A DNA stretch of 64,000 nucleotides from an uncultured Pseudomonadota bacterium (GTDB lineage Bacteria > Pseudomonadota > Alphaproteobacteria > Rs-D84). Positions 33,661-45,268 of this stretch are shown here, piece by piece. Position 1 is the stretch's first letter; every line of letters begins with the position of its first letter. Below the pieces are notes generated by a model, which did not search any database, was not told where the DNA came from, and worked only from the letters and a program-made list of their open reading frames with translations. The stretch is from contig CAMZIQ010000001.1 in assembly GCA_947307295.1 (NCBI GenBank), positions 40,968 through 104,967 of the forward strand, given 5' to 3'. The position numbers were made by a program, and so were the translations under genes.

Positions 33661-36600
33661 TTAAAAGTTATATCTGAATTTCAACATACCTGTTTGAGAT
33701 GTGTAATCTTTACGAACATCTATATCATAATTGATAGAGAAATCCATTGCACGATATTTCATACCCAAACCGATACCAAATTCACCACCCAAACGATTCA
33801 AACGTTCACCACGCAAAGTATAAGAATCTACACCTGGCATTGTGACGGTTGCAACGTTTTTATCAGACAACATATCGTATTTGATTGCAGCATTTAATTG
33901 AGGGATAAATGTTGTATATTTATCAGCAACTACATTAAACGCATACTTTGCACCCAAAACGCCTGTTAAGAAATCTGTATCTTTGGATTTAATTTTAGAC
34001 CCAAAAGAATCAGTATAATCACTAGCATTTACATGCAAATAACGCAATCCCAATTCAGGTGTCACACCACTTGCAAAATTATATCCTGTCGCAACAGTAC
34101 CACCAAACGCATTAACGTCATAGTCAGCAGTTTTTGCAGTTCCCAAAACATCAGCTGTTTCAGAGAAATCAGACCAAGTATAATTGGCAACAGCATTCAC
34201 ATACCATTCTGCTGGCTTATATTGACCGTACAAGAATACTGTGTTGCTGTCGATTTCTGTATCACGTACAGAAGTGATATCAGAATGAGCAAACGAATAA
34301 CCTGCTCCAACTTTCCAAACTTTGTTGATTGTTCCGTCCATACCTGCTGCGATTCCACGGGTATATCCGCTGAACGCATCATCTTGTTTAGATTTATTGA
34401 ACAAGCCCTGTGCCCAAACACCACCAGATGTAAAGTTCACATCACCACCACTACGTCCAATCGTTGGCGCAGCCATACGAGCACCAGCCAAATTTGCTAC
34501 AGTAGTTTGAACCGAAGTAGCAACAGATTGTTTTACAGATTCATTTTCCGGATGCACCGCCTTGGCAGCATGTTCAACTTCTTGTTGTGCAATTGGTGTT
34601 GCTTCTGCCAACTTTTCTTGCATCTTTTCAGCAACTTCGTTCAACTTTTCAGACGAAGATTGTGACATACCCAAAATCGCAGCAGCACTGTTTTCAGACA
34701 AATTATTTTCTTCTGCAATTGCCTCAACAGATTTCAAAGTTGCTGTCACATCCTTGTCTTCATTTGTCCATGACAAATCATAAATTGTACTGGAAACTCT
34801 ATTTTTTGCACTTGCTAAAACTTTGTCACCAAACACATGATAAGTTCCTGCATCATTGAATATCAAAGACAATGTTCCATCACCAGCAAAAGCATCTGTC
34901 GCTGTTAATTGAGCATCACCACTTCTGACTGTTGCAATCAAAGTTCCAGCCAAATCAATTGTACCTTGGTTAATAGATGCAGTTCCGATATTCAAAGTTG
35001 CACCATTTGCGATTGACAATGTTCCATCACCAGTAATACCACCATCCATTGTGGTTGTTCCAGATGCAACTGTCAAAGAACCAACATTATGAATATCATT
35101 AGCTAAACCATTTGCTGTATTACCAGTAAATGTATTTGTCCCAGCCAAAGTAATATCACCAACATTGTAAATAGCGCCACCGTTTGTAGTTGCTGTATTA
35201 CCAGTAAACGTCACGCCATTTATACGTGCGCCATACTTTGTCACAACATTTCCTTCATCAACAGTATTGGACAAAGAATTTGCAATCGCACCACCATAAA
35301 CAGCGTTGTTTGTTGTAAATGTGCCACCATTTACTGCCAAAGAAGATTTCGCACCTGGTTGAGCGGACGAAATTCCACGTGTAGAAATCGCACCACCCCA
35401 AGTACCAGATTCATTAGATGTAAATGTAGAATTTGTTATGGTCGCAACACTGTCATCATACATAAATATTGCACCACCACCTTCATTAGAATCTGTTGAA
35501 TTTACCCCGATTACTGTACCGGTCGTCTGGTTTCCTTCAAATGCAGAACCTGTCACATTTAATATAGCATCAGAAATGATTGCTCCACCTTCTGCACCTG
35601 CTGTATTATCTGTGAAAGTGCTGTTCAAAATATCTATGGTCATACCTTGTGAATATTTATTATTGGCAAACGCCGTAATACCCATTTGACCAATCGCACC
35701 ACCAGCAGTATCTGACAGGTTGTCTTCAAATGAAGTATTGGTGATAGTCAATGTTTTCACTTTACTGGCTGCATTTTCAGGCGTAGATTGATTTGTTATA
35801 CTGCCCGATACAAGTAATGCACCACCAATTGCTACGTCTCCACCATTGGCATGGTTGTTATTAAATAATAAATTATCCAAAACAGCACTTACATTTACAC
35901 TAGATGACAAAGCGCCACCTTGTTGTGCAGTATTTCCTGTAAATTCAACACCGTTATTGATAACAAATCCATTACCGTCATAAACCGTGCCAGCCAAAGC
36001 CAAAGCACCACCTGTATTAAATGCTTTATTATCAATGAATTTTACACCAGTACCAAATGTAGGAGTTGACCCGACAGCACTGATATAAACCGCACCACCA
36101 TTTCCTTTTGTAGATGTGGCACCTGTTCCATCAAGATTAGCAAAACCTGCTTTGTTTTCTCTGAATATAACATTATTACCTATATGTAAATTTCCATCTT
36201 TGCCAGGATTGCTTGCTGGACTCAGTCCGCCGGATGTCAAAGCACCACCACCTGCTGTCTTTGCAAGGTTATTTGTAAATGTTGTTCCATCTGCTATGGT
36301 CAAAGTATTTTGGTCTCCAGCAATAGCGCCGCCGCCAGAACCGCCGCTAAAAGACGAAACATTTTGTTCAAACGAACCAGACACGGTCACATTACCGCCG
36401 CCTGACAAACTTACAACAGCACCTCTTGATGCTGTATTTCCTGTAAATGTCCCATCTATATTTGCCTCAGAAGCCAAAATATAAAATACAGATTTTTGAT
36501 TATTTTCAGCTTCTATATTTGTCGCAACAAGATTAACATTTTCGCCATAGACCAAACTATAAGCTCCGCTGTTGCCTTCGAAATGCACATTATCAAGAAC

Positions 36601-37563
36601 TATATTATTCTTTGTTGTAGAACTGCTGTTATCCGCATATATAAACGCACCATTAACCGCACTATTAAACCCAGATACATTTACATTTCTTACTGTTAAA
36701 TCTGTATTTGGGCTAACAGATAAATTATCAGTAAAAGCCGTCACCTGACCATTTGAAATAGTGTATGCCTTAGAATTCGTTTCCAACGTCGGACTAGCTT
36801 TCAAATCTGTTGGTGTCGTATCATAAGCAGCATAATATTCTTTGCCATCTATTATATAAGTATCATGTGGCTTCGCATTTATCGTATAAGTAAACAACTC
36901 ATGTTCTTTGATTGTATAATGTCCTTCGCCGTCAGAAACAAATCCATCCAAAGCTACTTGATAAGAGCTACTAGAACTTTTTGTAGAATAAAACTTTGTT
37001 GTCGTTGTAATATCTTCTGGTGTAGGGTTAGCTTGATTTACATACGCATAAACCAAATTGTTGTTTTCATCTCTAAACGCAACATATTTACCAGAACTGT
37101 TTTCTGCAGAATAAGTTAATGTCTTTGTAGTTCCTTCCGCATCTATAGAACATTTTGGCTCTGCATTAGTACCAAACTTCATATAAACTGTTCCAATTTC
37201 TTCAGTTCTTTCATAATCAGAATATATCGCACTTCCCACATTTATAGAAGAATAATAAAACACAGTGTCTGTTCCATCCATTGTTGCCCTATACACAGTA
37301 TAAGAACTTGATTTTTCAGGCAACGCAACAGGAGTATTCAAAACAGATATATTGTGATTACCGCCATCTATAACCGTGTTAGAATTAACGGTGTTATATG
37401 GTGTATTAAAAGAAATATCCCCTGCTAAATTAATATTTCCACCATTTGTTAGTGCTGTATTAAAATCTGCCACATTAGCGACATTCACAGCCATTGCAGG
37501 CATCACCAATAATGCTGGTAATACAGAAACACCAACTAATAAGTTGTGAAATTTTTTATTCAT
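33661..37563 (-). CDS. type Va autotransporter with a Pmp/Sca-like passenger (GGA[IL] and FxxN repeat motifs) and a C-terminal beta-barrel translocator
   Basis: Signal peptide MNKKFHNLLVGVSVLPALLVMPAMA. Many passenger motifs such as GGAI, FTDN, FTSN, FTGN. The C-terminal ~280 aa are beta-barrel-like and end in …FRYNF. Confidence 0.75.
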   Translation of the reverse strand: MNKKFHNLLVGVSVLPALLVMPAMAVNVANVADFNTALTNGGNINLAGDISFNTPYNTVNSNTVIDGGNHNISVLNTPVALPEKSSSYTVYRATMDGTDTVFYYSSINVGSAIYSDYERTEEIGTVYMKFGTNAEPKCSIDAEGTTKTLTYSAENSSGKYVAFRDENNNLVYAYVNQANPTPEDITTTTKFYSTKSSSSSYQVALDGFVSDGEGHYTIKEHELFTYTINAKPHDTYIIDGKEYYAAYDTTPTDLKASPTLETNSKAYTISNGQVTAFTDNLSVSPNTDLTVRNVNVSGFNSAVNGAFIYADNSSSTTKNNIVLDNVHFEGNSGAYSLVYGENVNLVATNIEAENNQKSVFYILASEANIDGTFTGNTASRGAVVSLSGGGNVTVSGSFEQNVSSFSGGSGGGAIAGDQNTLTIADGTTFTNNLAKTAGGGALTSGGLSPASNPGKDGNLHIGNNVIFRENKAGFANLDGTGATSTKGNGGAVYISAVGSTPTFGTGVKFIDNKAFNTGGALALAGTVYDGNGFVINNGVEFTGNTAQQGGALSSSVNVSAVLDNLLFNNNHANGGDVAIGGALLVSGSITNQSTPENAASKVKTLTITNTSFEDNLSDTAGGAIGQMGITAFANNKYSQGMTIDILNSTFTDNTAGAEGGAIISDAILNVTGSAFEGNQTTGTVIGVNSTDSNEGGGAIFMYDDSVATITNSTFTSNESGTWGGAISTRGISSAQPGAKSSLAVNGGTFTTNNAVYGGAIANSLSNTVDEGNVVTKYGARINGVTFTGNTATTNGGAIYNVGDITLAGTNTFTGNTANGLANDIHNVGSLTVASGTTTMDGGITGDGTLSIANGATLNIGTASINQGTIDLAGTLIATVRSGDAQLTATDAFAGDGTLSLIFNDAGTYHVFGDKVLASAKNRVSSTIYDLSWTNEDKDVTATLKSVEAIAEENNLSENSAAAILGMSQSSSEKLNEVAEKMQEKLAEATPIAQQEVEHAAKAVHPENESVKQSVATSVQTTVANLAGARMAAPTIGRSGGDVNFTSGGVWAQGLFNKSKQDDAFSGYTRGIAAGMDGTINKVWKVGAGYSFAHSDITSVRDTEIDSNTVFLYGQYKPAEWYVNAVANYTWSDFSETADVLGTAKTADYDVNAFGGTVATGYNFASGVTPELGLRYLHVNASDYTDSFGSKIKSKDTDFLTGVLGAKYAFNVVADKYTTFIPQLNAAIKYDMLSDKNVATVTMPGVDSYTLRGERLNRLGGEFGIGLGMKYRAMDFSINYDIDVRKDYTSQTGMLKFRYNF

Positions 37564-37631
37564 TATAAAATCTCCTTTCTTCATACATATAAAATGTTAT
37601 CACATTATTTTGATAAATCAAATCATCATTA

Positions 37632-37660: not shown

Positions 37661-38395
37661 TTATTTGTTGTTTTTAAAATACAATTTTGCATATTCTGCC
37701 ATCACATTTATCATCATTCCTCGATAACCGAATTTATCCCAATTATGTGAAGCTGTTTCCAATTCCACCCTGAAATCTTCAAAAGAAGCCTGTTCCCAAT
37801 CTATAAAGAAAGTGATATCAAACGTTTTTGTATCCAACATAAAATTTTGCCAAATATCTTTTTGAAACCACCCATACAAAAAACCAGGTTTGTCTTCGGG
37901 GTCAGATTTCAAATCACGAAGTTCCACCGGATCACTTTTACCAATTACATACAAAAAATTAGCAATTTGTTTTGCGATATGTACCTGATGTTGCCCAATA
38001 ACAGATGGCTTCACATCTGTTAACAATGTTCCGTGTGCAAATTCATATTTGCGCACATAGATGTTTTTATAAGGGATTATTTTCATCAGCGGTATTTTAA
38101 TTGGCGAAATTCCATAGAAAGCATCAACTATGCGTTTTTCACGAATTGCGACATCTTTTCCATCTGTTAAAAGAGGAAACTTAAACACATGTTTATTATT
38201 TAAAATCACAACAAAATTTTTACAACCATATCCAACCATAGTTTTTATTTTGCGTTGCTTCATATTTTTAGCAAAATGACGGACAAAACGAATATATTCG
38301 CGAATCTGCGGATAACGAATCATCGTCCGCACTTTGTCACGCAAAGGTTTAGACCATATAAAACCACATACTATATTAGATATAAAATGTCGCAT
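37661..38395 (-). CDS. small atypical kinase-fold protein (Kdo/WaaP/choline-kinase-like?), 244 aa
   Basis: Choline-kinase-like FIDWEQASF motif and a degenerate catalytic-loop-like QKDIWQN; lysine in HVFKFP. Weak. Confidence 0.35.
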   Translation of the reverse strand: MRHFISNIVCGFIWSKPLRDKVRTMIRYPQIREYIRFVRHFAKNMKQRKIKTMVGYGCKNFVVILNNKHVFKFPLLTDGKDVAIREKRIVDAFYGISPIKIPLMKIIPYKNIYVRKYEFAHGTLLTDVKPSVIGQHQVHIAKQIANFLYVIGKSDPVELRDLKSDPEDKPGFLYGWFQKDIWQNFMLDTKTFDITFFIDWEQASFEDFRVELETASHNWDKFGYRGMMINVMAEYAKLYFKNNK

Positions 38396-38477: not shown

Positions 38478-40385
38478 CTATTTTAATTTATACTTAAAAA
38501 CACGAATTCCGAACAAATCTACCTTTAGATAATTGTTATTAGATACATAATGTCTGTAAATCGGTATACCAAATATAGTATATTTCAAATTCCGTTTAAT
38601 TTTTGTATTAGATAAATATTCACAACTAATAACTTTCTGACCGATATAAGATTTTATTTCATTATAGATATTGTTATATTTGGTTTCACAAGACTTATTT
38701 GTGCCGATACATTCAAGAACTTTGCACAAAGAATATGCATCATCCCAACGATATGGTTTTTCACGAAATTCTGGTGTCCCCAGTCCATATAAAAAACCCT
38801 TTGTTTTTATCAAAAAATCTAATTCTTTATAATTTGATTTACGGACAGCCAATTGGAAATCTATTAATTTCACACGACCACCAGACAAGACCAAATTTTT
38901 CAAAGTAATATCCCGATGAACAACATCAGAATCTTTTAAGCATTTAAATATCTGATAAATATCATCCAACCAAATATTCCTTTGTTTATCAGATAATTTG
39001 TGAGTTTTTAAAAACTCGTGTAAATTTTCACCTTCTGTCCATTCGTATGCAACAAAATGTTCGTTTGGGCAATCTCGATAATACATCGGCCTAATAAAAT
39101 GAACTTTATCCATATCGTACAGAATTTTTCCCATCTGATATTCATTTACATATATGCCAGGGATATCGCTGATTTTTATAAACATACGTGTTCCGTCTGT
39201 ATCGTATCCAGATGCAAAGACATTGTATGCCGCGTTCACAGAATCAGTATAAACTGTTTGAACATTTTTAAAACCAAAATTTGATTCAAGATATTTTTTA
39301 TATTCATTAAATTTTACAAGCTTTTCAGAATAATACACAGACGTATCATCCGGACGTGTGAAATTATAATTATTTTTATTCATAAAACCAGTTAACAATT
39401 GAAAATACAAATCAAACGGTGATGCGTACTTTTTTACATCATATTTCTTATCCAGTTTTAATTTTTTGAACAAATCCGCTATTTTATCATAATAATCAGA
39501 AGCAATTTTTTGCTTATTAATTAAACAATGATAAATCAACATATAAAAATAATTTTCTGTATTTGGGACGCGTATTACATTTCCATAATATTCAAATGTT
39601 TTGAATATATTGTTATCCCATTTTTTATCATGATAGTTATTATTTATATCCCATAAATCAATGTAAATACCCTTATCTTTTACTTTTATTAAATAGTGTG
39701 GTCTTGGTCTGTCTGTGAAATGCGCCTGCCCGCCAACAATCCAACGCGCAGCATCATAATTTTGAACCATAATATCAATATCACCATGTTCAGAACTATT
39801 CAAAGTTTGTTCCAGATTTTCAAAACCACGTAAAACTATATAATCTGTTGTTGCATTTAATGTATAAAAAAACTGTTTCAAACTGTCCCAACCATGTGCA
39901 CCGGTTATATCACGATGAACAGTTTTTACTTTGCCATCCCATTTTTTCGGTAAAGATTTTTTCAAATCATCATAATTTAACCCCAATAATAACGCAGAAT
40001 CATGATTCGTTTCATTAACAGAATTTGTAGTATGAATTTTGTGTCCACCGCGCGTCCATTGTCTGTATTTTTGTTTCAATGAAAATATATTTACGTTCAC
40101 ACGTTCATGCCCACGCGAAGTTTCAACCATTTCATATTTTGGTTTATTATCACGAACCACCAACAACAAAAACCCAGTTGTGCCACATTCCTTTTCTTTT
40201 TCAGAACGATTAGGCAAATTCACCCCGTAAAATCTGCTGAAATTATCAGACACACAATCACAAGACCAATGGACATCATACGCAGCCATTATATCCAAAT
40301 GAGATTTAACATCTTCTATAATCTCATTTTCTTTATATCTTGCATTTGCCCAAAGGACTATAAGGTGTATTTCTGGATTTTTCAT
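38478..40385 (-). CDS. two-domain protein: N-terminal LicD/pol-beta-like nucleotidyltransferase-fold region fused to a eukaryotic-like protein kinase domain (635 aa)
   Basis: HGDIDIMV (DxD) motif in the N-terminal half. HRDITLKNLV catalytic loop and DFQ (DFG-like) in the C-terminal half. Confidence 0.5.
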   Translation of the reverse strand: MKNPEIHLIVLWANARYKENEIIEDVKSHLDIMAAYDVHWSCDCVSDNFSRFYGVNLPNRSEKEKECGTTGFLLLVVRDNKPKYEMVETSRGHERVNVNIFSLKQKYRQWTRGGHKIHTTNSVNETNHDSALLLGLNYDDLKKSLPKKWDGKVKTVHRDITGAHGWDSLKQFFYTLNATTDYIVLRGFENLEQTLNSSEHGDIDIMVQNYDAARWIVGGQAHFTDRPRPHYLIKVKDKGIYIDLWDINNNYHDKKWDNNIFKTFEYYGNVIRVPNTENYFYMLIYHCLINKQKIASDYYDKIADLFKKLKLDKKYDVKKYASPFDLYFQLLTGFMNKNNYNFTRPDDTSVYYSEKLVKFNEYKKYLESNFGFKNVQTVYTDSVNAAYNVFASGYDTDGTRMFIKISDIPGIYVNEYQMGKILYDMDKVHFIRPMYYRDCPNEHFVAYEWTEGENLHEFLKTHKLSDKQRNIWLDDIYQIFKCLKDSDVVHRDITLKNLVLSGGRVKLIDFQLAVRKSNYKELDFLIKTKGFLYGLGTPEFREKPYRWDDAYSLCKVLECIGTNKSCETKYNNIYNEIKSYIGQKVISCEYLSNTKIKRNLKYTIFGIPIYRHYVSNNNYLKVDLFGIRVFKYKLK

Positions 40386-40411
40386 ATTATTTTTCCATCA
40401 CAAAAGTTATA

Positions 40412-41269
40412 TTATTTCCAAAACATTTTGCATATAGGTATGCACTCGAATAACACAATCCAATTATTTTTAATCTTTACCAATGGGATAAATCCAAACA
40501 AACGCAATCTAAATTGAGTTCCTGGAACCATCATTTTTGATGCCACACGACGATATTCAGGATATTTAGATGATATTTCCATACGAATATTTGCAGCAGC
40601 CTCTTCACGAGCATCATTCATACGCTTAGACGTATTATTTTCAAACCATCTGTAATGAATTAAAATTTCTTGAAAATTATAAAAATGAGTCACTTCCATC
40701 AAACGTGTCCACAAACGATAATCTTCAGCCGGGGTATAAAATTCTTCATATTCAATATTATTATCAACCAAAACAGATTTACGTATCATTGATGCAGAAT
40801 GTATCACGAAACAATTTTCAGTCAGATGAACACGAATCTGCGAATCCATTTCAGGAGTTTTACATAAATCATCATAATTATCCCCAAAATAATGAGCCCA
40901 ACCAGACACAACACCAATATGTGGATGAGAATCCAGATATGCAACTTCTTTTTCCAAACGTTCTGGCACAGATACATCATCATGGTCGAATATAGCCAAA
41001 TATTCCCCCGCAGCCATTTTCACCAACCTATTCCGCGAAGGCGTAATCCCCATATTTTTTGTATTTTTTATATATTTTACACGTTTATCTTTTTTAGCAT
41101 AATCTTTGACAATCTTTTCAATTTCTTTATTATCAGGGCTGTCATTTAAAATCAAAAATTCAAAATCTGTAAAAGTCTGATTTAAAATAGATTCAATCAT
41201 TTCACGCAAATGCGTTGGATTAGTATTATAAATCGGCGTTAAAACAGATACTTTTGGTGCTTTTGGCAT
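40412..41269 (-). CDS. family 2 glycosyltransferase
   Basis: VSVLTPIYN, ILNDSPDN and AIFDHDDV (DxD) GT2-A motifs. Confidence 0.85.
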   Translation of the reverse strand: MPKAPKVSVLTPIYNTNPTHLREMIESILNQTFTDFEFLILNDSPDNKEIEKIVKDYAKKDKRVKYIKNTKNMGITPSRNRLVKMAAGEYLAIFDHDDVSVPERLEKEVAYLDSHPHIGVVSGWAHYFGDNYDDLCKTPEMDSQIRVHLTENCFVIHSASMIRKSVLVDNNIEYEEFYTPAEDYRLWTRLMEVTHFYNFQEILIHYRWFENNTSKRMNDAREEAAANIRMEISSKYPEYRRVASKMMVPGTQFRLRLFGFIPLVKIKNNWIVLFECIPICKMFWK

Positions 41270-41384
41270 TGGCTTTCCTTTGTTATATTTATAAAAAATA
41301 GGATAATATTATTGTGCCATAAAAATAGATAATAGCAAGATGTTTATTTTATAAATGATGAAAAAAACACAGTTGCGCCAAGCA

Positions 41385-41430
41385 CAATTCACGAACCAAC
41401 ATAATCAAAATCAGACAAGAGATTGATGAA
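41385..41430. repeat. island repeat part 2, copy A (caattcacgaaccaacataatcaaaatcagacaagagattgatgaa)
   Basis: 46-nt element, 70–85% identical to copies at 41894, 42557 and 43336. Confidence 0.7.
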
Positions 41431-41453
41431 TTTGTTTTAAAATATTATCAGCG

Positions 41454-41798
41454 TTATTTTTTACGCCCTCTACCCCCGTCTAATAAAACGATGTGTGTTT
41501 CAATCATCCCGCTTTTCATACGTCTACGTGCTACCGTAAAACCTCGTTCATAAGATCTTTGAAAATTTTTCAATATGTTTTCAATGTTACCAATTTCAAT
41601 TATACTGCGAACCGCGTTGTTATATCCTGGTTTCTCGGTTGGCCCAATAGAAAGAACTTTTTCCACATGCCACTTTACAGCACTAATTTCCTGATCAGTC
41701 AATGTGCGTCCCAAACCTTCATTTTTTAAGCTTGTCAGCGATAAATTTTGTTTTTTCATTGAATCATTTGCTTTTTGCAATTCTTTATTGGCATCCAT
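41454..41798 (-). CDS. hypothetical protein (114 aa)
   Basis: ORF flanked by island repeats A and B; no recognisable motif. Confidence 0.45.
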   Translation of the reverse strand: MDANKELQKANDSMKKQNLSLTSLKNEGLGRTLTDQEISAVKWHVEKVLSIGPTEKPGYNNAVRSIIEIGNIENILKNFQRSYERGFTVARRRMKSGMIETHIVLLDGGRGRKK

Positions 41799-41893
41799 AA
41801 TTTATCCTTTTTTATATTATTACACCCCTATTATATAACACAAAAAAACATATTGTCAATATTTATTTAAAAAATTCACTTTCGCCACCTATG

Positions 41894-41939
41894 CAATTCA
41901 CGAGCCGATATAATCAAAATCGGAAAAGAGATTGATGAA
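41894..41939. repeat. island repeat part 2, copy B
   Basis: caattcacgagccgatataatcaaaatcggaaaagagattgatgaa. Confidence 0.7.
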
Positions 41940-41975
41940 ATGAAAGACACATTAAACCTGCCAAATTTAATTTGA

Positions 41976-42491
41976 TTACGGAATAAATGTTTCAATATAT
42001 TTCCAACCGTTTTCATCTAAAACGAAATGAAAACATTGGGCATTTTGAATACCGTCAACTTTATGTCCGCACGCCCAACATAGTGCACGTGTTACGCCAC
42101 CATGAGAAGCAATCGCAATATTTTCATGTTTATCTGTCTTAACAATTTGTTCTAGGTAATTTTTTATAAGTTTGAAATTATCGTTTATTTGCTTTTTCTT
42201 TTCTTCGTCTTCAACATCCCAAAACCAAAATATCGCTTCTTTGAGGGCGTCATTGGTTACAATTTTGATATCTGTACCATTTGTGATTGCAATTTTTGCG
42301 GTATCTATTGCACGTCTGTAAGGACTTGAATAAACAATCTGAATATTTTTATCTTTAAAAAATTCGTGCAACTTGGTTGCCTGTATAACACCTAAATCTG
42401 TCAACCAAGCATCAATACCTGTGCCATACCGAACACCAACTTCGTTTTCATTTGTTTGTCCATGCCTGAAAAAATAAAAATGCCTTTCCAT
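41976..42491 (-). CDS. histidine phosphatase family protein (PGAM/SixA-like)
   Basis: RHGQT catalytic motif at the N-terminus and …ASHGG…; 171 aa. Confidence 0.8.
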   Translation of the reverse strand: MERHFYFFRHGQTNENEVGVRYGTGIDAWLTDLGVIQATKLHEFFKDKNIQIVYSSPYRRAIDTAKIAITNGTDIKIVTNDALKEAIFWFWDVEDEEKKKQINDNFKLIKNYLEQIVKTDKHENIAIASHGGVTRALCWACGHKVDGIQNAQCFHFVLDENGWKYIETFIP

Positions 42492-42523
42492 GAAATAACC
42501 TTTTCAAAAATTATATCACAACA

Positions 42524-42600
42524 GTTCGAATATGACAAATTTTCGATATTTTACATGATTCACAAACCACCATAATCAAAATCAAACAAGAAATAATAGA
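42524..42600. repeat. island repeat copy C (truncated part 1 fused to part 2)
   Basis: gttcgaatatgacaaattttcgatatttt followed by gattcacaaaccaccataatcaaaatcaaacaagaaataataga. Confidence 0.65.
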
Positions 42601-42614
42601 TTTCAAAAACAAAT

Positions 42615-42623
42615 TTATGGTAT
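42615..42623 (+). promoter_or_regulatory. extended -10 promoter (TGgTATAAT) for the NlpC/P60-like gene
   Basis: tggtataat 11 nt upstream of the ATG at 42634. Confidence 0.4.
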
Positions 42624-42633
42624 AATATAGAAT

Positions 42634-43206
42634 ATGCAAACAAATATAGATTTCTTTAACAATTTGTTCCGACAGGACTTCGTTTCTGAATACAATCATT
42701 CTAATTATATTGATAAATTTGGTGGTAAAAATTTCTTTCATATGGATTGCAGCGGTTTCGTTTATTGGTGCTTGGCACAAATGGGTTATAAACGGGCGTT
42801 GGTTGAATTGAAAAATTTTTTAAAAGAAAACGATTTTATAAAAATAAATAGATTTTTCTGTAAAGACTTTGCATTTATTCATGAACATAAAAATAAATTA
42901 ACCTATTGGGATTTCATGGACAGACCTATTTCTGGTTCTATTATGGTTGTTGTATTTCCTGATGGTAATGGTCATTGTATGTTTATTGATAACATCATCG
43001 ATAATAATAAAACTAAACTATGTTTGTGGGTGATTGATTCTACCCAATACCCACATAAAAGCGACACCAGAACAGATGAAGAAACAGGCATAGGTATTGG
43101 CGAAATTGAAATAACAACTAAAAACGGCGATTGGTTCTATGATTCTGGCAACAAATCATTACCAATAAGAAAAGCAGAAATATATTTTATATCACCCAAA
43201 AAATAA
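42634..43206 (+). CDS. NlpC/P60-like (papain-fold) cysteine peptidase/amidase-like protein
   Basis: DCSGFVYWC catalytic-Cys motif with a downstream His (GNGHCMFID); 190 aa. Confidence 0.5.
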   Translation: MQTNIDFFNNLFRQDFVSEYNHSNYIDKFGGKNFFHMDCSGFVYWCLAQMGYKRALVELKNFLKENDFIKINRFFCKDFAFIHEHKNKLTYWDFMDRPISGSIMVVVFPDGNGHCMFIDNIIDNNKTKLCLWVIDSTQYPHKSDTRTDEETGIGIGEIEITTKNGDWFYDSGNKSLPIRKAEIYFISPKK

Positions 43207-43209
43207 AAA

Positions 43210-43382
43210 GTTTGAAAATGACAATTTTTTGATATTTTTCCAAAACAAAACTTTCGAACTCGGTGAAAGTATTAGCAAACAAATAAAAAACCGCCCTGAA
43301 ACGAACGATTGTCTATCTTGGTTGTGCTATCTGTGCAATTTGCGAGCCTATATCATCAAAACTGGACAAGAGATTAATGAAG
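43210..43382. repeat. island composite repeat copy D (part 1 palindrome, degenerate tRNA-3'-end-like segment, part 2)
   Basis: gtttgaaaatgacaattttttgatatttttccaaaacaaaactttcgaactcggtgaaag … tcttggttgtgctatctgtg … caatttgcgagcctatatcatcaaaactggacaagagattaatgaa. Confidence 0.7.
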
Positions 43383-43427
43383 CGAAAGACAAACTAGGAC
43401 TCTGATTAAATAATATTTGTTTAGTAA

Positions 43428-44015
43428 TTATTTACCCTTGTATTCACTTACCAGTTTAGAAAAAATCAAATGATCTGTCCATTTACCGTTGGATAGTTTC
43501 GCATATTCTCTTAAACGGCCATCCAAATGATACCCACTGCTTAAAATAGATTTTAGTGACCTTTCATTGTTTTCCATACATTGACGACTCATACGGTGTA
43601 TTTTTAAATCGTTGAATGTGATTTTTTCCAAAAGATTATGGATTTCATGATTAAAACCATGACCCCATGCTGATTTAACAAACCAAACATTACCTGGGTT
43701 AACAGTATCATTTTCTTTATTATACGAAACGCCATGAAAGCCGATCAATTTACCACCATGAAACACATACCATAAAACCCCATTGAATTTAAATGCTTCT
43801 GCGTAATTTTTCATTGTTTCAAATGTTTCATCCAATGATTCTGGCAAAGGTTTATCATATTTTGGTGAATAATGTATAAAAGCAAAATCTTCTGGATTTT
43901 CATTTTTAATTGCTTCCCACACCAGTTCAGCATTTTGCATTGTTGGTTCAAGAATACGAAGTTCCAATCTTTCTGTTTTGTGATTTTTTTTGAAGAATTT
44001 AAAAAACTTTTCCAT
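43428..44015 (-). CDS. GNAT family N-acetyltransferase (RimJ/RimL-like)
   Basis: GNAT fold pattern (…VLWYVFHGGKLIGFHGV…NPGNVWFV…); 195 aa. Confidence 0.75.
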   Translation of the reverse strand: MEKFFKFFKKNHKTERLELRILEPTMQNAELVWEAIKNENPEDFAFIHYSPKYDKPLPESLDETFETMKNYAEAFKFNGVLWYVFHGGKLIGFHGVSYNKENDTVNPGNVWFVKSAWGHGFNHEIHNLLEKITFNDLKIHRMSRQCMENNERSLKSILSSGYHLDGRLREYAKLSNGKWTDHLIFSKLVSEYKGK

Positions 44016-44030
44016 ATTATCACCTTTTTA

Positions 44031-44801
44031 TTATTTTTCCGCTTCTGCTATTTTTTTACGTAATTCAGGTTCGTTTTGCTGAACAAAATTATATGACTTT
44101 TCCATAAAATCGTATATGTCTTTACGTTCCAGATATAACTTTTTCATAGTATCAAACAGCAATTTTCCATTTATTTCCATCTCATAAAAATATGAATATG
44201 CTATGTGTTTTGGTTGCTTAACCAAATTTCCAATTTCGGAATTACGAATTATGGTTTCAACAACTATTTCCGATAAAACCCATTTCAAATGTGGGGTATC
44301 ATATTCGTCAGGATTGTCTTTGAAGTATTCGTGCCAAATATAAAACCAAACAAAATGTGTTATTTCATGCAATGCAGCAAATATCGCGTATTCTGGCTCG
44401 AACTTATAGAAAACATCAAAAGTGTATTCTTGTACATTTCGGGGACAAACAGGGTCTAATCCAACGAAACCTACCATATCATTCAAAATTTTTGTACAAT
44501 CATACCCAAAAGTTGATGAATACGCTTGATTTAACTTTTTTGCTACTGGTATCCAATTCGTTTGAAACATTTTTATTGAATTCTGTATATCGTCAGAGTG
44601 CAAAACCGATAATTTTTCCATTTCTTTTCGTATATATTTCAAACGTTCAGATTCTGGTAATTTTCTTGCATATTCGTAATTTAAAGACGGAAACACTTCA
44701 AAAAGCCGTTTAGACCACCAAGCTGGTTTATCATCTTGCTGTAAAAACAAAATAAAATCCAAATCCTCTTCAAAATCTTTTTGTTTCCAAGTTAGTTGCA
44801 T
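44031..44801 (-). CDS. hypothetical protein with an HExxH motif (putative zinc-dependent hydrolase), 256 aa
   Basis: ALHEITHFVWF contains HEITH; 16 nt upstream of the GNAT gene (probable operon). Confidence 0.45.
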   Translation of the reverse strand: MQLTWKQKDFEEDLDFILFLQQDDKPAWWSKRLFEVFPSLNYEYARKLPESERLKYIRKEMEKLSVLHSDDIQNSIKMFQTNWIPVAKKLNQAYSSTFGYDCTKILNDMVGFVGLDPVCPRNVQEYTFDVFYKFEPEYAIFAALHEITHFVWFYIWHEYFKDNPDEYDTPHLKWVLSEIVVETIIRNSEIGNLVKQPKHIAYSYFYEMEINGKLLFDTMKKLYLERKDIYDFMEKSYNFVQQNEPELRKKIAEAEK

Positions 44802-44845
44802 TGTACCAATCCTTTAATAGCTGTAGTACGATTGTATCACAAAAA

Positions 44846-45010
44846 GTTCGAAAATGCCAAAAAATTGCGATTTTTCAAAATTAAACTTTCGAACTCGATG
44901 AAAAACTTGCGATTCCAACAAAAACCGCACTTATGGACGGTTATGTAAACTATGGTTGGGGTACACGGTGCCTTGATACACAATAATAAAAATCAAAAAA
45001 ATCTCCAGTT
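44846..45010. repeat. island composite repeat copy E (part 1 palindrome, exact 16-nt tRNA-Gln 3'-end repeat, degenerate part 2)
   Basis: gttcgaaaatgccaaaaaattgcgatttttcaaaattaaactttcgaactcgatgaaaaac … tggttggggtacacgg … cacaataataaaaatcaaa. Confidence 0.7.
44953..44968. repeat. exact 16-bp direct repeat of the tRNA-Gln 3' end (tggttggggtacacgg); att-like
   Basis: Identical to 45195-45210, which is the reverse complement of the tRNA 3' terminus including CCA. Confidence 0.8.
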
Positions 45011-45156
45011 GTCGATTTTTTAATATTTTTCTAATTGTCTATCTGCGTACTCGCTCGCCCCCATTACAATGGTGGCTGCGCGGCAATCGTAACGATTTTG
45101 TTTTACAAAATCTACTGCTTGTCGAACCTGCGATTCTCGTCTCGTTATCACCAAAA

Positions 45157-45186
45157 CCAAAAATTAAAACCCCCACAAGGGGTGTT
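45157..45186 (-). terminator. hairpin plus T-run immediately downstream of the tRNA-Gln 3' end
   Basis: On the minus strand: aaacaccccttgtggggg followed by ttttaatttt. Confidence 0.5.
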
Positions 45187-45194
45187 TAAATTCT

Positions 45195-45268
45195 TGGTTG
45201 GGGTACACGGACTCGAACCGCGATATACAGAGTCAGAGTCTGCTGTTCTACCATTAAACTATACCCCA
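45195..45268 (-). tRNA. tRNA-Gln (anticodon CUG)
   Basis: Hand-folded cloverleaf: 7-bp acceptor with a U1:A72 pair typical of bacterial tRNA-Gln (UGGGGUA…UACCCCA), D-arm GUUU/GAAC, anticodon loop CUCUGAC, T-arm CGCGG-UUCGAGU-CCGUG, discriminator A, encoded CCA. Confidence 0.85.

Follow-up and report, generated by a model that had tools for sequence, protein, structure and literature searches.

A 46-nt element that recurs in a 64-kb stretch of DNA from an uncultured alphaproteobacterium of the order Rs-D84 (contig CAMZIQ010000001.1; this whole stretch of 64,000 nt is called the window) is probably the cassette-side arm of a recombination site, belonging to a gene-cassette system with a tRNA 3' end as its target, and it is probably selected for an encoded peptide. 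Comparison of the element between genomes indicates that, across the group, it evolves like the coding sequence of a helical peptide of ~30 residues. We take the peptide to be a cassette-borne micro-protein.

The original prediction placed four copies of the element at 41385, 41894, 42557 and 43336, all on the plus strand, and these are present as described (c1 to c4, respectively). A repeat finder returned four copies of 37 nt with 76-89% identity, and a 30-nt pattern allowing up to three mismatches gave two matches versus none expected from shuffled sequence. A profile search of the 64 kb, using a model built from those same four copies, returned only these four strong matches (E 1e-12 to 1e-21). 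A further, decayed copy is located at 44979-45000 within a full repeat unit (44829-45033), and a weak decayed copy at 45129-45162 (E 0.46 in the profile search). The element was also said to lie immediately 3' of a cassette open reading frame (ORF), and this is true of three copies. Copy c1 is 23 nt from the stop of the minus-strand ORF 41454-41798, c2 is 0-36 nt from that of the minus-strand ORF 41976-42491, and c4 is 22-46 nt from that of the minus-strand ORF 43428-44015. It does not apply to c3, whose neighbors are the start of a minus-strand ORF (42491) on one side and that of a plus-strand ORF (42634) on the other.

Alignment of the junctions places the element in the right-hand portion of a repeat unit of ~210 nt, of which the window has two complete examples (43187-43398 and 44829-45033). 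Along the plus strand, a unit consists of part 1 with an inverted repeat of TTCGAA, a GC-rich hairpin serving as a minus-strand terminator, the hexamer TGGTTG (the core), and the 46-nt element itself (part 2). The core is the reverse complement of the tRNA 3' end, CAACCA. Units separate cassettes of ~0.7 kb, mostly single-gene, downstream of a tRNA-Gln gene. The anchor, units and copies in the window are as follows.

45195..45268, minus strand: tRNA-Gln(CTG), anchor of the array (ARAGORN; Rfam RF00005, 67.5 bits)
44829..45033, plus strand: c5, the tRNA-proximal hybrid unit (profile E 8e-43, alignment, promoter and terminator scan)
43336-43382, plus strand: c4, within the micro-ORF 43319..43405 (TGG TTG ... 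TGA), which begins at the core TGGTTG (43319-43324) and encodes WLCYLCNLRAYIIKTGQEINEAKDKLGL followed by a stop
43187..43318, plus strand: left part of the c4 unit, with part 1 repeats GTTTGAAA (43210-43217) and TTTCGAAC (43252-43259)
42557..42626, plus strand: c3, a part 2 of the variant ending ..EIIDFKNKFMV and a stop, whose end is the extended -10 promoter TGGTATAAT (42618-42626)
41880..41975, plus strand: c2 (copy 41894-41939), with an open frame ending ..FRHLCNSRADIIKIGKEIDEMKDTLNLPNLI and a stop
41373..41432, plus strand: c1 (copy 41385-41430), the distal-most unit, with decayed core AGTTGCGC and the stop of the frame lost

Among the four reported copies, only c4 has an intact TGGTTG. 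The core of c2 is decayed (CTTTCGCC in place of TGGTTGTGC), and the stop of its frame abuts the stop of the convergent gene 41976-42491. Part 1 of c3 (42510-42556) directly abuts part 2 because the core and terminator have been deleted. On the minus strand, the c1 stretch has a terminator-like hairpin (41387..41373). To judge from their sequences, the three distal window copies look decayed, and c1-c3 look like fossil boundaries.

This architecture occurs in about 65 loci from gut and rumen assemblies of Candidatus Enterousia and related members of the order Rs-D84. A degenerate pattern spanning the four copies identified ten loci in a collection of species-representative genomes, nine of which are metagenome-assembled genomes of Candidatus Enterousia or other Alphaproteobacteria from human and ruminant guts, and a second pattern identified 52 loci in metagenomes. 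These 62 loci yielded 159 unit matches, co-oriented within every locus, and in all 26 that hold a tRNA-Gln gene it lies on the opposite strand at the right-hand end of the units. Five loci have arrays at tRNA-Met(CAT), among them L067, L027, L072 and L073, where the proximal unit carries 20 nt copied from the tRNA-Met 3' end, and units adjoin tRNA-Glu(CTC) in two others (L030 and L038); the system is thus not restricted to tRNA-Gln. The tRNA sequence and flanking genes of the window are common to L010 and L012, with 60-94% amino-acid identity by gene. A viral origin was rejected, as a scan of viral contigs gave six chance matches only, none of which extended beyond the pattern. Members of the order Rs-D84, to which Enterousia belongs, have genomes under about 1 Mb (PMC12306168).

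The cassettes of these arrays appear to have moved. The 97 segments between units have a median length of ~700 nt and hold one gene in 85 cases, and their 100 distinct cargo proteins fall into 64 clusters, so that the arrays consist of co-oriented tandem cassettes with diverse, exchangeable cargo. Cargo families recur at differing positions across arrays, and many cassette pairs are 90-100% identical in DNA between loci. In each of the six pairs examined, high identity starts at TGGTTG and the sequence to its left is unrelated. A 99.8% identical pair in L007 and L065 has both ends at TGGTTG, in arrays located at different tRNA-Gln isoacceptors. Another cassette is 99.4% identical between L010 (3826-4590) and L032 (4421-5185), where both the tRNA-Gln genes and the flanks differ, which suggests recent transfer between species or possibly assembly chimerism. 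The proximal cassette of the window (43319-44952) has a counterpart of ~90% identity deep inside the L053 array, at another array position, with identity starting at TGGTTG (43319) and stopping just before 44953. Near-identical cassettes in different arrays, with identity running from TGGTTG, argue for site-specific cassette movement. The suggestion that the element marks a cassette boundary is borne out in that near-identical cassettes begin exactly at the preceding TGGTTG, which puts the element beside the recombination crossover. From these sharp boundaries we infer excision of cassettes as circles and their site-specific re-integration.

Similar peptides can be read in one frame of the element, as the original prediction observed, and the element does lack a start codon. 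Substitutions were also correctly reported to show no third-position excess among the four copies (variable columns by codon position, 7/7/9). That result was right for its own data, although four copies, fossil ones among them, were too small a sample. The rejection of coding drawn from it is contradicted by 61 distinct units, taken from loci whose search pattern left this stretch uncovered (codons 10-24). The recommended alignment and dN/dS-style comparison, carried out on these units, recovered a coding signature, though not the upstream ORF continuity that had been named along with it. The 61 units had passed a filter that demanded an open plus frame and set residue classes at three positions; this selection accounts for the lack of stops and for part of the conservative-replacement score (mean BLOSUM62 +0.09, versus -1.33 in the antisense frame with shared wobble positions). 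Entropy by codon position was 0.84/0.45/1.34, and position 3 exceeded position 2 in 14 of 15 codons. The ratio of nonsynonymous to synonymous polymorphism (pN/pS) was 0.43 in the frame of the earlier reader versus 0.97 and 1.41 in the other plus-strand frames. Conservative exchanges of the types I/L/V, D/E and K/R/Q were seen, and length variants of part 2 differed by +3 or +12 nt with no others. A stop occurs 24-36 codons after TGG in 85% of 92 units, and the frame often ends in a conserved ..KDKLxLxxLx motif and stop. A coding signal invisible in the four local copies is plain once the whole family is sampled.

Upstream of TGGTTG, entropy was 0.73/0.96/0.82, in-frame stops were present in 37 of 49 units, and the spacing between unit anchors varied modulo 3. 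With the signal gone upstream of the core and this spacing varying, the coding segment starts at or just after the crossover. From the core onward, the peptide consensus is WLCxxCNSRAELLEIGREIDxxKDKLxLxxL followed by a stop. AlphaFold modeled it as one long helix (predicted local distance difference test score, 78), and a single amphipathic helix is the predicted form of the ~30-residue peptide. The TTG within TGGTTG is the one start candidate that all units share. As to function, a recombination accessory or cassette-maintenance factor would be a guess.

The peptide is probably not left over from a larger gene: across 5.8 billion clustered proteins and 1.84 billion representatives, the motif was confined to ORFs of 30-130 aa. 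The profile search of the former matched small ORFs only, with no larger parent gene, and an exhaustive HMMER search of the latter returned the 30-130 aa ORFs plus three spurious repeat or low-complexity proteins. The long matches P0060, P0085 and P0088 were discarded as repeat or low-complexity proteins that share just a CxxCNxRTEI-like or WLCYLC motif. A known family was rejected, the peptide having no Pfam match. Minus-strand coding was rejected as well; antisense pN/pS was 0.46, but replacements were radical by the score given above, stops occurred, and start and end were inconsistent. A whole-unit ORF of 70-85 aa (KVRKF..TFEL..) was ruled out by the varying anchor spacing, the lack of periodicity and the in-frame stops. 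A variant of part 2 found before plus-strand cargo, ..EIIDFKHRFMV and a stop, has the extended -10 promoter TTTATGGTATAAT at its end. Copy c3 belongs to this type, and its promoter serves the plus-strand NlpC/P60-like gene 42634-43206; the c3-type variant precedes plus-strand cargo also in L007, L043, L049/L061, L030 and L067.

An attC-like folded structure, which had been proposed for the element, was not found. Neither strand of part 2 shows a conserved structure (alifold consensus, -1.8 and -0.1 kcal; mean single-sequence z, -0.3), the R''/L''/L'/R' architecture not having been searched. Nor is the element itself an intrinsic terminator; the terminator sits across the core, on the side opposite part 2, and is the sole conserved hairpin of the unit. 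On the minus strand, a hairpin and U-tract directly follow CAACCA in 85 of 91 units, with the sequence varying and the structure kept. Descent of part 2 from a tRNA was rejected because, past TGGTTG, neither local nor global alignment to four tRNAs did better than shuffled sequence. A true tRNA copy was found in the proximal hybrid unit only, and profile matches on the real tRNA were probably driven by hybrid units in the model. Rfam gave no known RNA family other than the tRNA.

Conservation in part 1 is highest at two TTCGAA palindromes with entropy near 0, GTTCGAAA followed by TTTCGAAC, which stand 40 nt apart with about 30 nt between them; they occur in all full units from L007 to L073, were outside every search pattern, and form the only conserved inverted repeat seen in the unit. 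In the window, they are at 44846-44853 and 44887-44894 in c5 and at the c4 positions listed above. TTCGAA-like sites are present also in part 2 (TTCGCGAA) and in the T-loop DNA of the tRNA (TTCGAA). By sequence likeness, the TTCGAA pair, TTCGCGAA and the T-loop TTCGAA look like a set of binding sites for one protein. In the window, part 1 encloses strong minus-strand promoters at 42538..42510 and 44860..44831. The notion of part 1 as a universal promoter was rejected, as a promoter score of at least 9/12 was reached in 31 of 92 part-1 regions and the conserved feature is the TTCGAA repeats, not the promoter hexamers. In c5, the promoter at 44860..44831 is accompanied by a minus-strand terminator (44942..44923) and the core TGGTTG (44953-44958), and a copy of the tRNA 3' end replaces the normal part 2. 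The c4 unit has its minus-strand terminator at 43310..43289, and its promoter spacing is disrupted by a 10-nt insertion. Distal-most units are without part 1, and in other loci their core adjoins a terminator hairpin of the native tRNA type (AACACCC..GGGTGTT).

In the mechanism that we propose, the system would be acted on by a recombinase whose gene lies elsewhere, probably one of the tyrosine type with an overlap of 6 nt. Strand exchange would occur within TGGTTG, between a circular cassette and either the tRNA 3' end or an existing unit. Given exchange at the tRNA 3' end, new cassettes would enter beside the tRNA and older ones would be pushed away. The terminator of the inserted cassette would replace that of the tRNA, ending both the tRNA transcript and the mRNA of the preceding cassette, and the cassette promoter would drive the cargo gene. 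Part 2 has the palindrome TTCGCGAA at the position of the T-loop TTCGAA, and its first ~30 nt, which include this palindrome, are probably a recombinase-binding arm, and the TTCGCGAA region and the two part 1 TTCGAA repeats would probably serve as protein-binding arms. The micro-ORF would be translated, and its product would have a role in recombination or maintenance.

Several points weigh against the cassette reading. No integrase was found in the island of the window (Pfam and tyrosine-recombinase motif), its flanking genes or ten other window ORFs of integrase size; no recombinase, integrase or phage gene was found by Pfam among the cargo proteins scanned, namely the ten largest and several more; and the arrays of five further loci had no recombinase within 10 kb. 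With none in the places searched, the enzyme and its reaction are inferred. Neither a circular cassette nor an empty site was seen. The micro-ORF is without a consistent ATG, and a Shine-Dalgarno-like motif is present in 6 of 80 units. No consistent plus-strand promoter was seen in the unit consensus, and the promoter scan of the window lists none. The four copies of the window do not themselves display the third-position excess. The search patterns with which the loci were collected account for part of the conservation of TGGTTG and TTCGCGA. Right-hand cassette boundaries are often mosaic, falling within part 1 or the terminator, which means that homologous exchange between units occurs too. 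The fullest version of the proposal is that Rs-D84 gut bacteria have a tRNA-anchored analogue of the integron with an unlinked recombinase and self-contained cassettes (promoter, gene and terminator) inserted at the CAACCA of tRNA-Gln and also of tRNA-Met, each with a translated helical micro-protein of ~30 aa whose coding sequence starts at the crossover and acts in recombination or maintenance; we advance it tentatively, as possible rather than probable.

Among nearby genes, a flanking family with a 244-aa member was considered as the recombinase and rejected, being kinase-like when read by eye and without a Pfam match. The genes adjoining the tRNA encode a hydrolase, DUF1015, a subtilase and similar proteins. 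In L069 (1-1266), an HNH gene follows a reverse transcriptase gene (RVT_1) ~9 kb from the array; the two may be a group II intron or a retron, and no link to the cassettes was seen.

The tRNA gene is kept intact, with the array at its 3' end. In the window, its terminal CAACCA reads TGGTTG on the plus strand at 45195-45200. In L053, L034, L032, L044 and L028, a unit abuts the CAACCA of a complete tRNA; since the terminator of the last unit abuts an intact tRNA, the tRNA takes the place of "core plus part 2" in some loci. Between the tRNA and the first full unit of the window is a segment without genes, designated S.

45169..45183, minus strand: intrinsic terminator of the tRNA gene (terminator scan)
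44969..45194, no strand assigned: S segment, gene-less, delimited by an exact repeat

A 16-nt direct repeat of the tRNA 3' end brackets the S segment (44953-44968 and 45195-45210), within which lies the weak part-2-like copy at 45129-45162. Gene-less segments of 166-272 nt, each bounded by a 13-44 nt copy of its own tRNA 3' end, occur in 17 loci at tRNA-Gln and tRNA-Met alike (the window, L007, L010-L012, L014, L015, L021, L026, L029, L058, L061, L066-L068, L072 and L073). Partial-tRNA direct repeats of 13-44 nt bound the S segment; cassettes share just TGGTTG with the tRNA. The S segment carries a conserved motif (..CGTAACGATTTG..hairpin..CAAATCTACT..GTCGAACC), and segments of this kind also lie inside long arrays. 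The S segment has no matching Rfam family, and could represent either a miniature integrative element or an RNA gene.

Four other explanations were weighed against the reading of part 2 as the peptide-selected arm of a cassette recombination site. Under ordinary island accretion, the units would be decaying attachment (att) scars from the serial integration of larger, integrase-carrying elements (prophages, integrative and conjugative elements or tycheposon-like elements) at tRNA-Gln, the cassettes would be deletion leftovers and part 2 would be functionless. The partial-tRNA repeats around the S segment beside the tRNA, the S-like remnants inside long arrays and the decay of the distal window copies all agree with this, the tycheposon model being one of such tRNA-seeded accretion (bioRxiv 10.1101/2020.12.28.424599), and integrase-less elements that retain att sites are described in the literature on cis-mobilizable elements (CIMEs; PMC5704250). 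We nevertheless consider accretion unlikely, given that 85 of the 97 cassettes have a single gene at a median of ~700 nt, that the cargo proteins scanned with Pfam (the ten largest and several others) include no integrase or phage gene, and that identical small cassettes are found across arrays with identity from TGGTTG. The unit consensus is moreover common to species with differing tRNA-Gln sequences, and part 2 is unlike tRNA beyond TGGTTG and under purifying selection. Another source of the clear coding signature, with its conserved C-terminus and stop, would be the 3' end of a larger gene copied with each cassette, either the target gene or an SSV-type integrase ORF spanning attP, and a minority of units do have the frame open from end to end. 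This is improbable, for the protein searches found the motif in ORFs of 30-130 aa only, apart from three spurious proteins, codon periodicity is absent upstream of the core, where in-frame stops abound, and the longest upstream open stretch among 92 units is 83 codons.

Alternatively, the element could be purely non-coding, either serving the cassette genes as a signal of the 3' untranslated region (UTR) or terminator or forming a row of sites for protein binding, with the peptide pattern as a by-product. We give this little credence. A conserved fold is missing from both strands, and 3-nt periodicity with position 2 most conserved, conservative exchanges and in-frame indels are unlike a binding site or RNA structure; on the other side are the location of the element immediately ahead of the terminator in the 3' UTR of cargo genes on the minus strand, the lack of a start codon and Shine-Dalgarno sequence, the conservation of the first 27 nt at all codon positions (partly due to ascertainment), and the variant before plus-strand cargo that doubles as a promoter. 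Last, the units might be a dispersed intergenic repeat, resembling repetitive extragenic palindromes or miniature inverted-repeat transposable elements, that shuffles genes by homologous recombination alone. Units are 70-85% alike and long enough for homologous exchange, and the mosaic right-hand boundaries are of the kind expected. We consider this reading very unlikely. Units occur only in co-oriented arrays behind tRNA genes (159 of 159 matches co-oriented, and none elsewhere in the 64 kb), the left boundary falls at TGGTTG in six of six pairs even without homology between the left neighbors, and no terminal inverted repeats or target duplications were evident in the unit alignments.

The cargo genes of the window are small and mutually unrelated. 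Their products include a glycosyltransferase, a 114-aa protein, a histidine phosphatase, an NlpC/P60-like protein, a GNAT acetyltransferase and a 256-aa protein (Pfam).

43319..44952, no strand assigned: proximal cassette from core to core, with part 2 and the micro-ORF, two genes, promoter and terminator; the genes are GNAT (43428-44015, minus) and the 256-aa gene (44031-44801, minus)
42510..42538, minus strand: part 1 promoter of c3, with TTGTCA, a 17-nt spacer and TGnTATAAT (11/12 positions plus TG extension; promoter scan), serving the histidine-phosphatase cassette gene 41976-42491
41830..41859, minus strand: promoter at the part 1 position, with TTGACA, an 18-nt spacer and TATAAT (12/12 positions; promoter scan), serving the 114-aa cassette gene 41454-41798

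The histidine-phosphatase cassette is homologous to the first L012 cassette from part 2 through part 1. Between the flank gene 37661-38395 and the last unit, the region 38478-41269 encodes a 635-aa protein with a weak protein-kinase domain and a family-2 glycosyltransferase. These genes have no counterpart in the syntenic loci L010 and L012, and may be older cassettes with lost boundaries. The flank gene belongs to a family of 235-254 aa proteins near arrays (window 37661-38395; L007 4727-6198; L012 3115-4563; L015, reverse-complemented, 2773-4232), often tandem paralogues of 37-60% identity and without a Pfam match, which look APH/kinase-like (..IDWE..) on reading the sequence by eye. Beyond it, a 1307-aa autotransporter (33661-37584) has many GGAI/FxxN repeats of the Chlamydia Pmp type; in the window, L008, L010, L012 and L015 alike, it makes up the conserved flank on the distal side of the array.

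Of known systems, integrons (chromosomal integrons included) and clusters of attC sites lacking an integron-integrase (CALIN) share with these arrays the tandem, co-oriented, small and mostly single-gene cassettes with very diverse cargo. As in integrons, each junction has a conserved recombination site, cassettes recur across positions and hosts, and new cassettes apparently enter at one fixed end. Unlike in an integron, no intI is present next to the array (island, flanks, ten window ORFs and neighbors in other loci), the anchor is the 3' end of a tRNA gene in place of attI, and the site carries a conserved micro-ORF. The site is also unlike attC in being without an imperfect palindrome or folded strand, the R''/L''/L'/R' motif search not having been run. 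Whereas integron cassettes depend on the promoter Pc, the cassettes here have their own promoter in the full units of the window and in 31 of 92 part-1 regions, and a terminator in nearly all. With no intI nearby, no attC-type fold and often their own promoters, the arrays lack the defining features of an integron.

Tycheposons of Prochlorococcus are elements of several kb with their own integrase and replication modules (bioRxiv 10.1101/2020.12.28.424599). They resemble the present system in integrating at specific tRNA 3' ends with partial-tRNA repeats (here those around the S segment), in accreting cargo away from the tRNA and in being most variable beside it (bioRxiv 10.1101/2020.12.28.424599). 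They differ in that the moving unit here is ~0.7 kb, has no recombinase, has 6 terminal nt in common with the tRNA and is delimited by a stereotyped 210-nt boundary unit. CIMEs are decayed integrative and conjugative or integrative and mobilizable elements of several kb, usually one or two per site (Pavlovic 2004; Bellanger 2011; PMC5704250). Like the cassettes, they have no integration genes, keep att sites, stack in tandem at one target and can be mobilized by a foreign integrase (PMC5704250). Unlike CIMEs, the arrays reach nine repeat units (eight intervals), with uniformly small cassettes and a modular design across the clade. A protein-coding frame that crosses a tRNA-matching recombination core is a feature shared with SSV-type archaeal integrases. 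Their ORF, in the work of She et al. from 2001-2004, reportedly exceeds 300 aa, contains attP and is split on integration, whereas the frame here has ~30 codons, starts at the core and has no larger parent.

The Rs-D84 relatives have genomes under 1 Mb and few obvious routes of gene exchange (PMC12306168), and the proposed system, if true, would explain where reduced genomes keep their variable genes. It would then raise two questions, namely which enzyme recognizes TGGTTG and the TTCGAA motifs and what job the conserved peptide performs. Judged by sequence, we class it as tRNA-targeted, integron-like cassette integration, distinct in form from the known systems compared. It would be a compact gene-capture platform that does the job of an integron by different means, with a tRNA 3' end as anchor, an unstructured site, self-expressing cassettes and no linked integrase.

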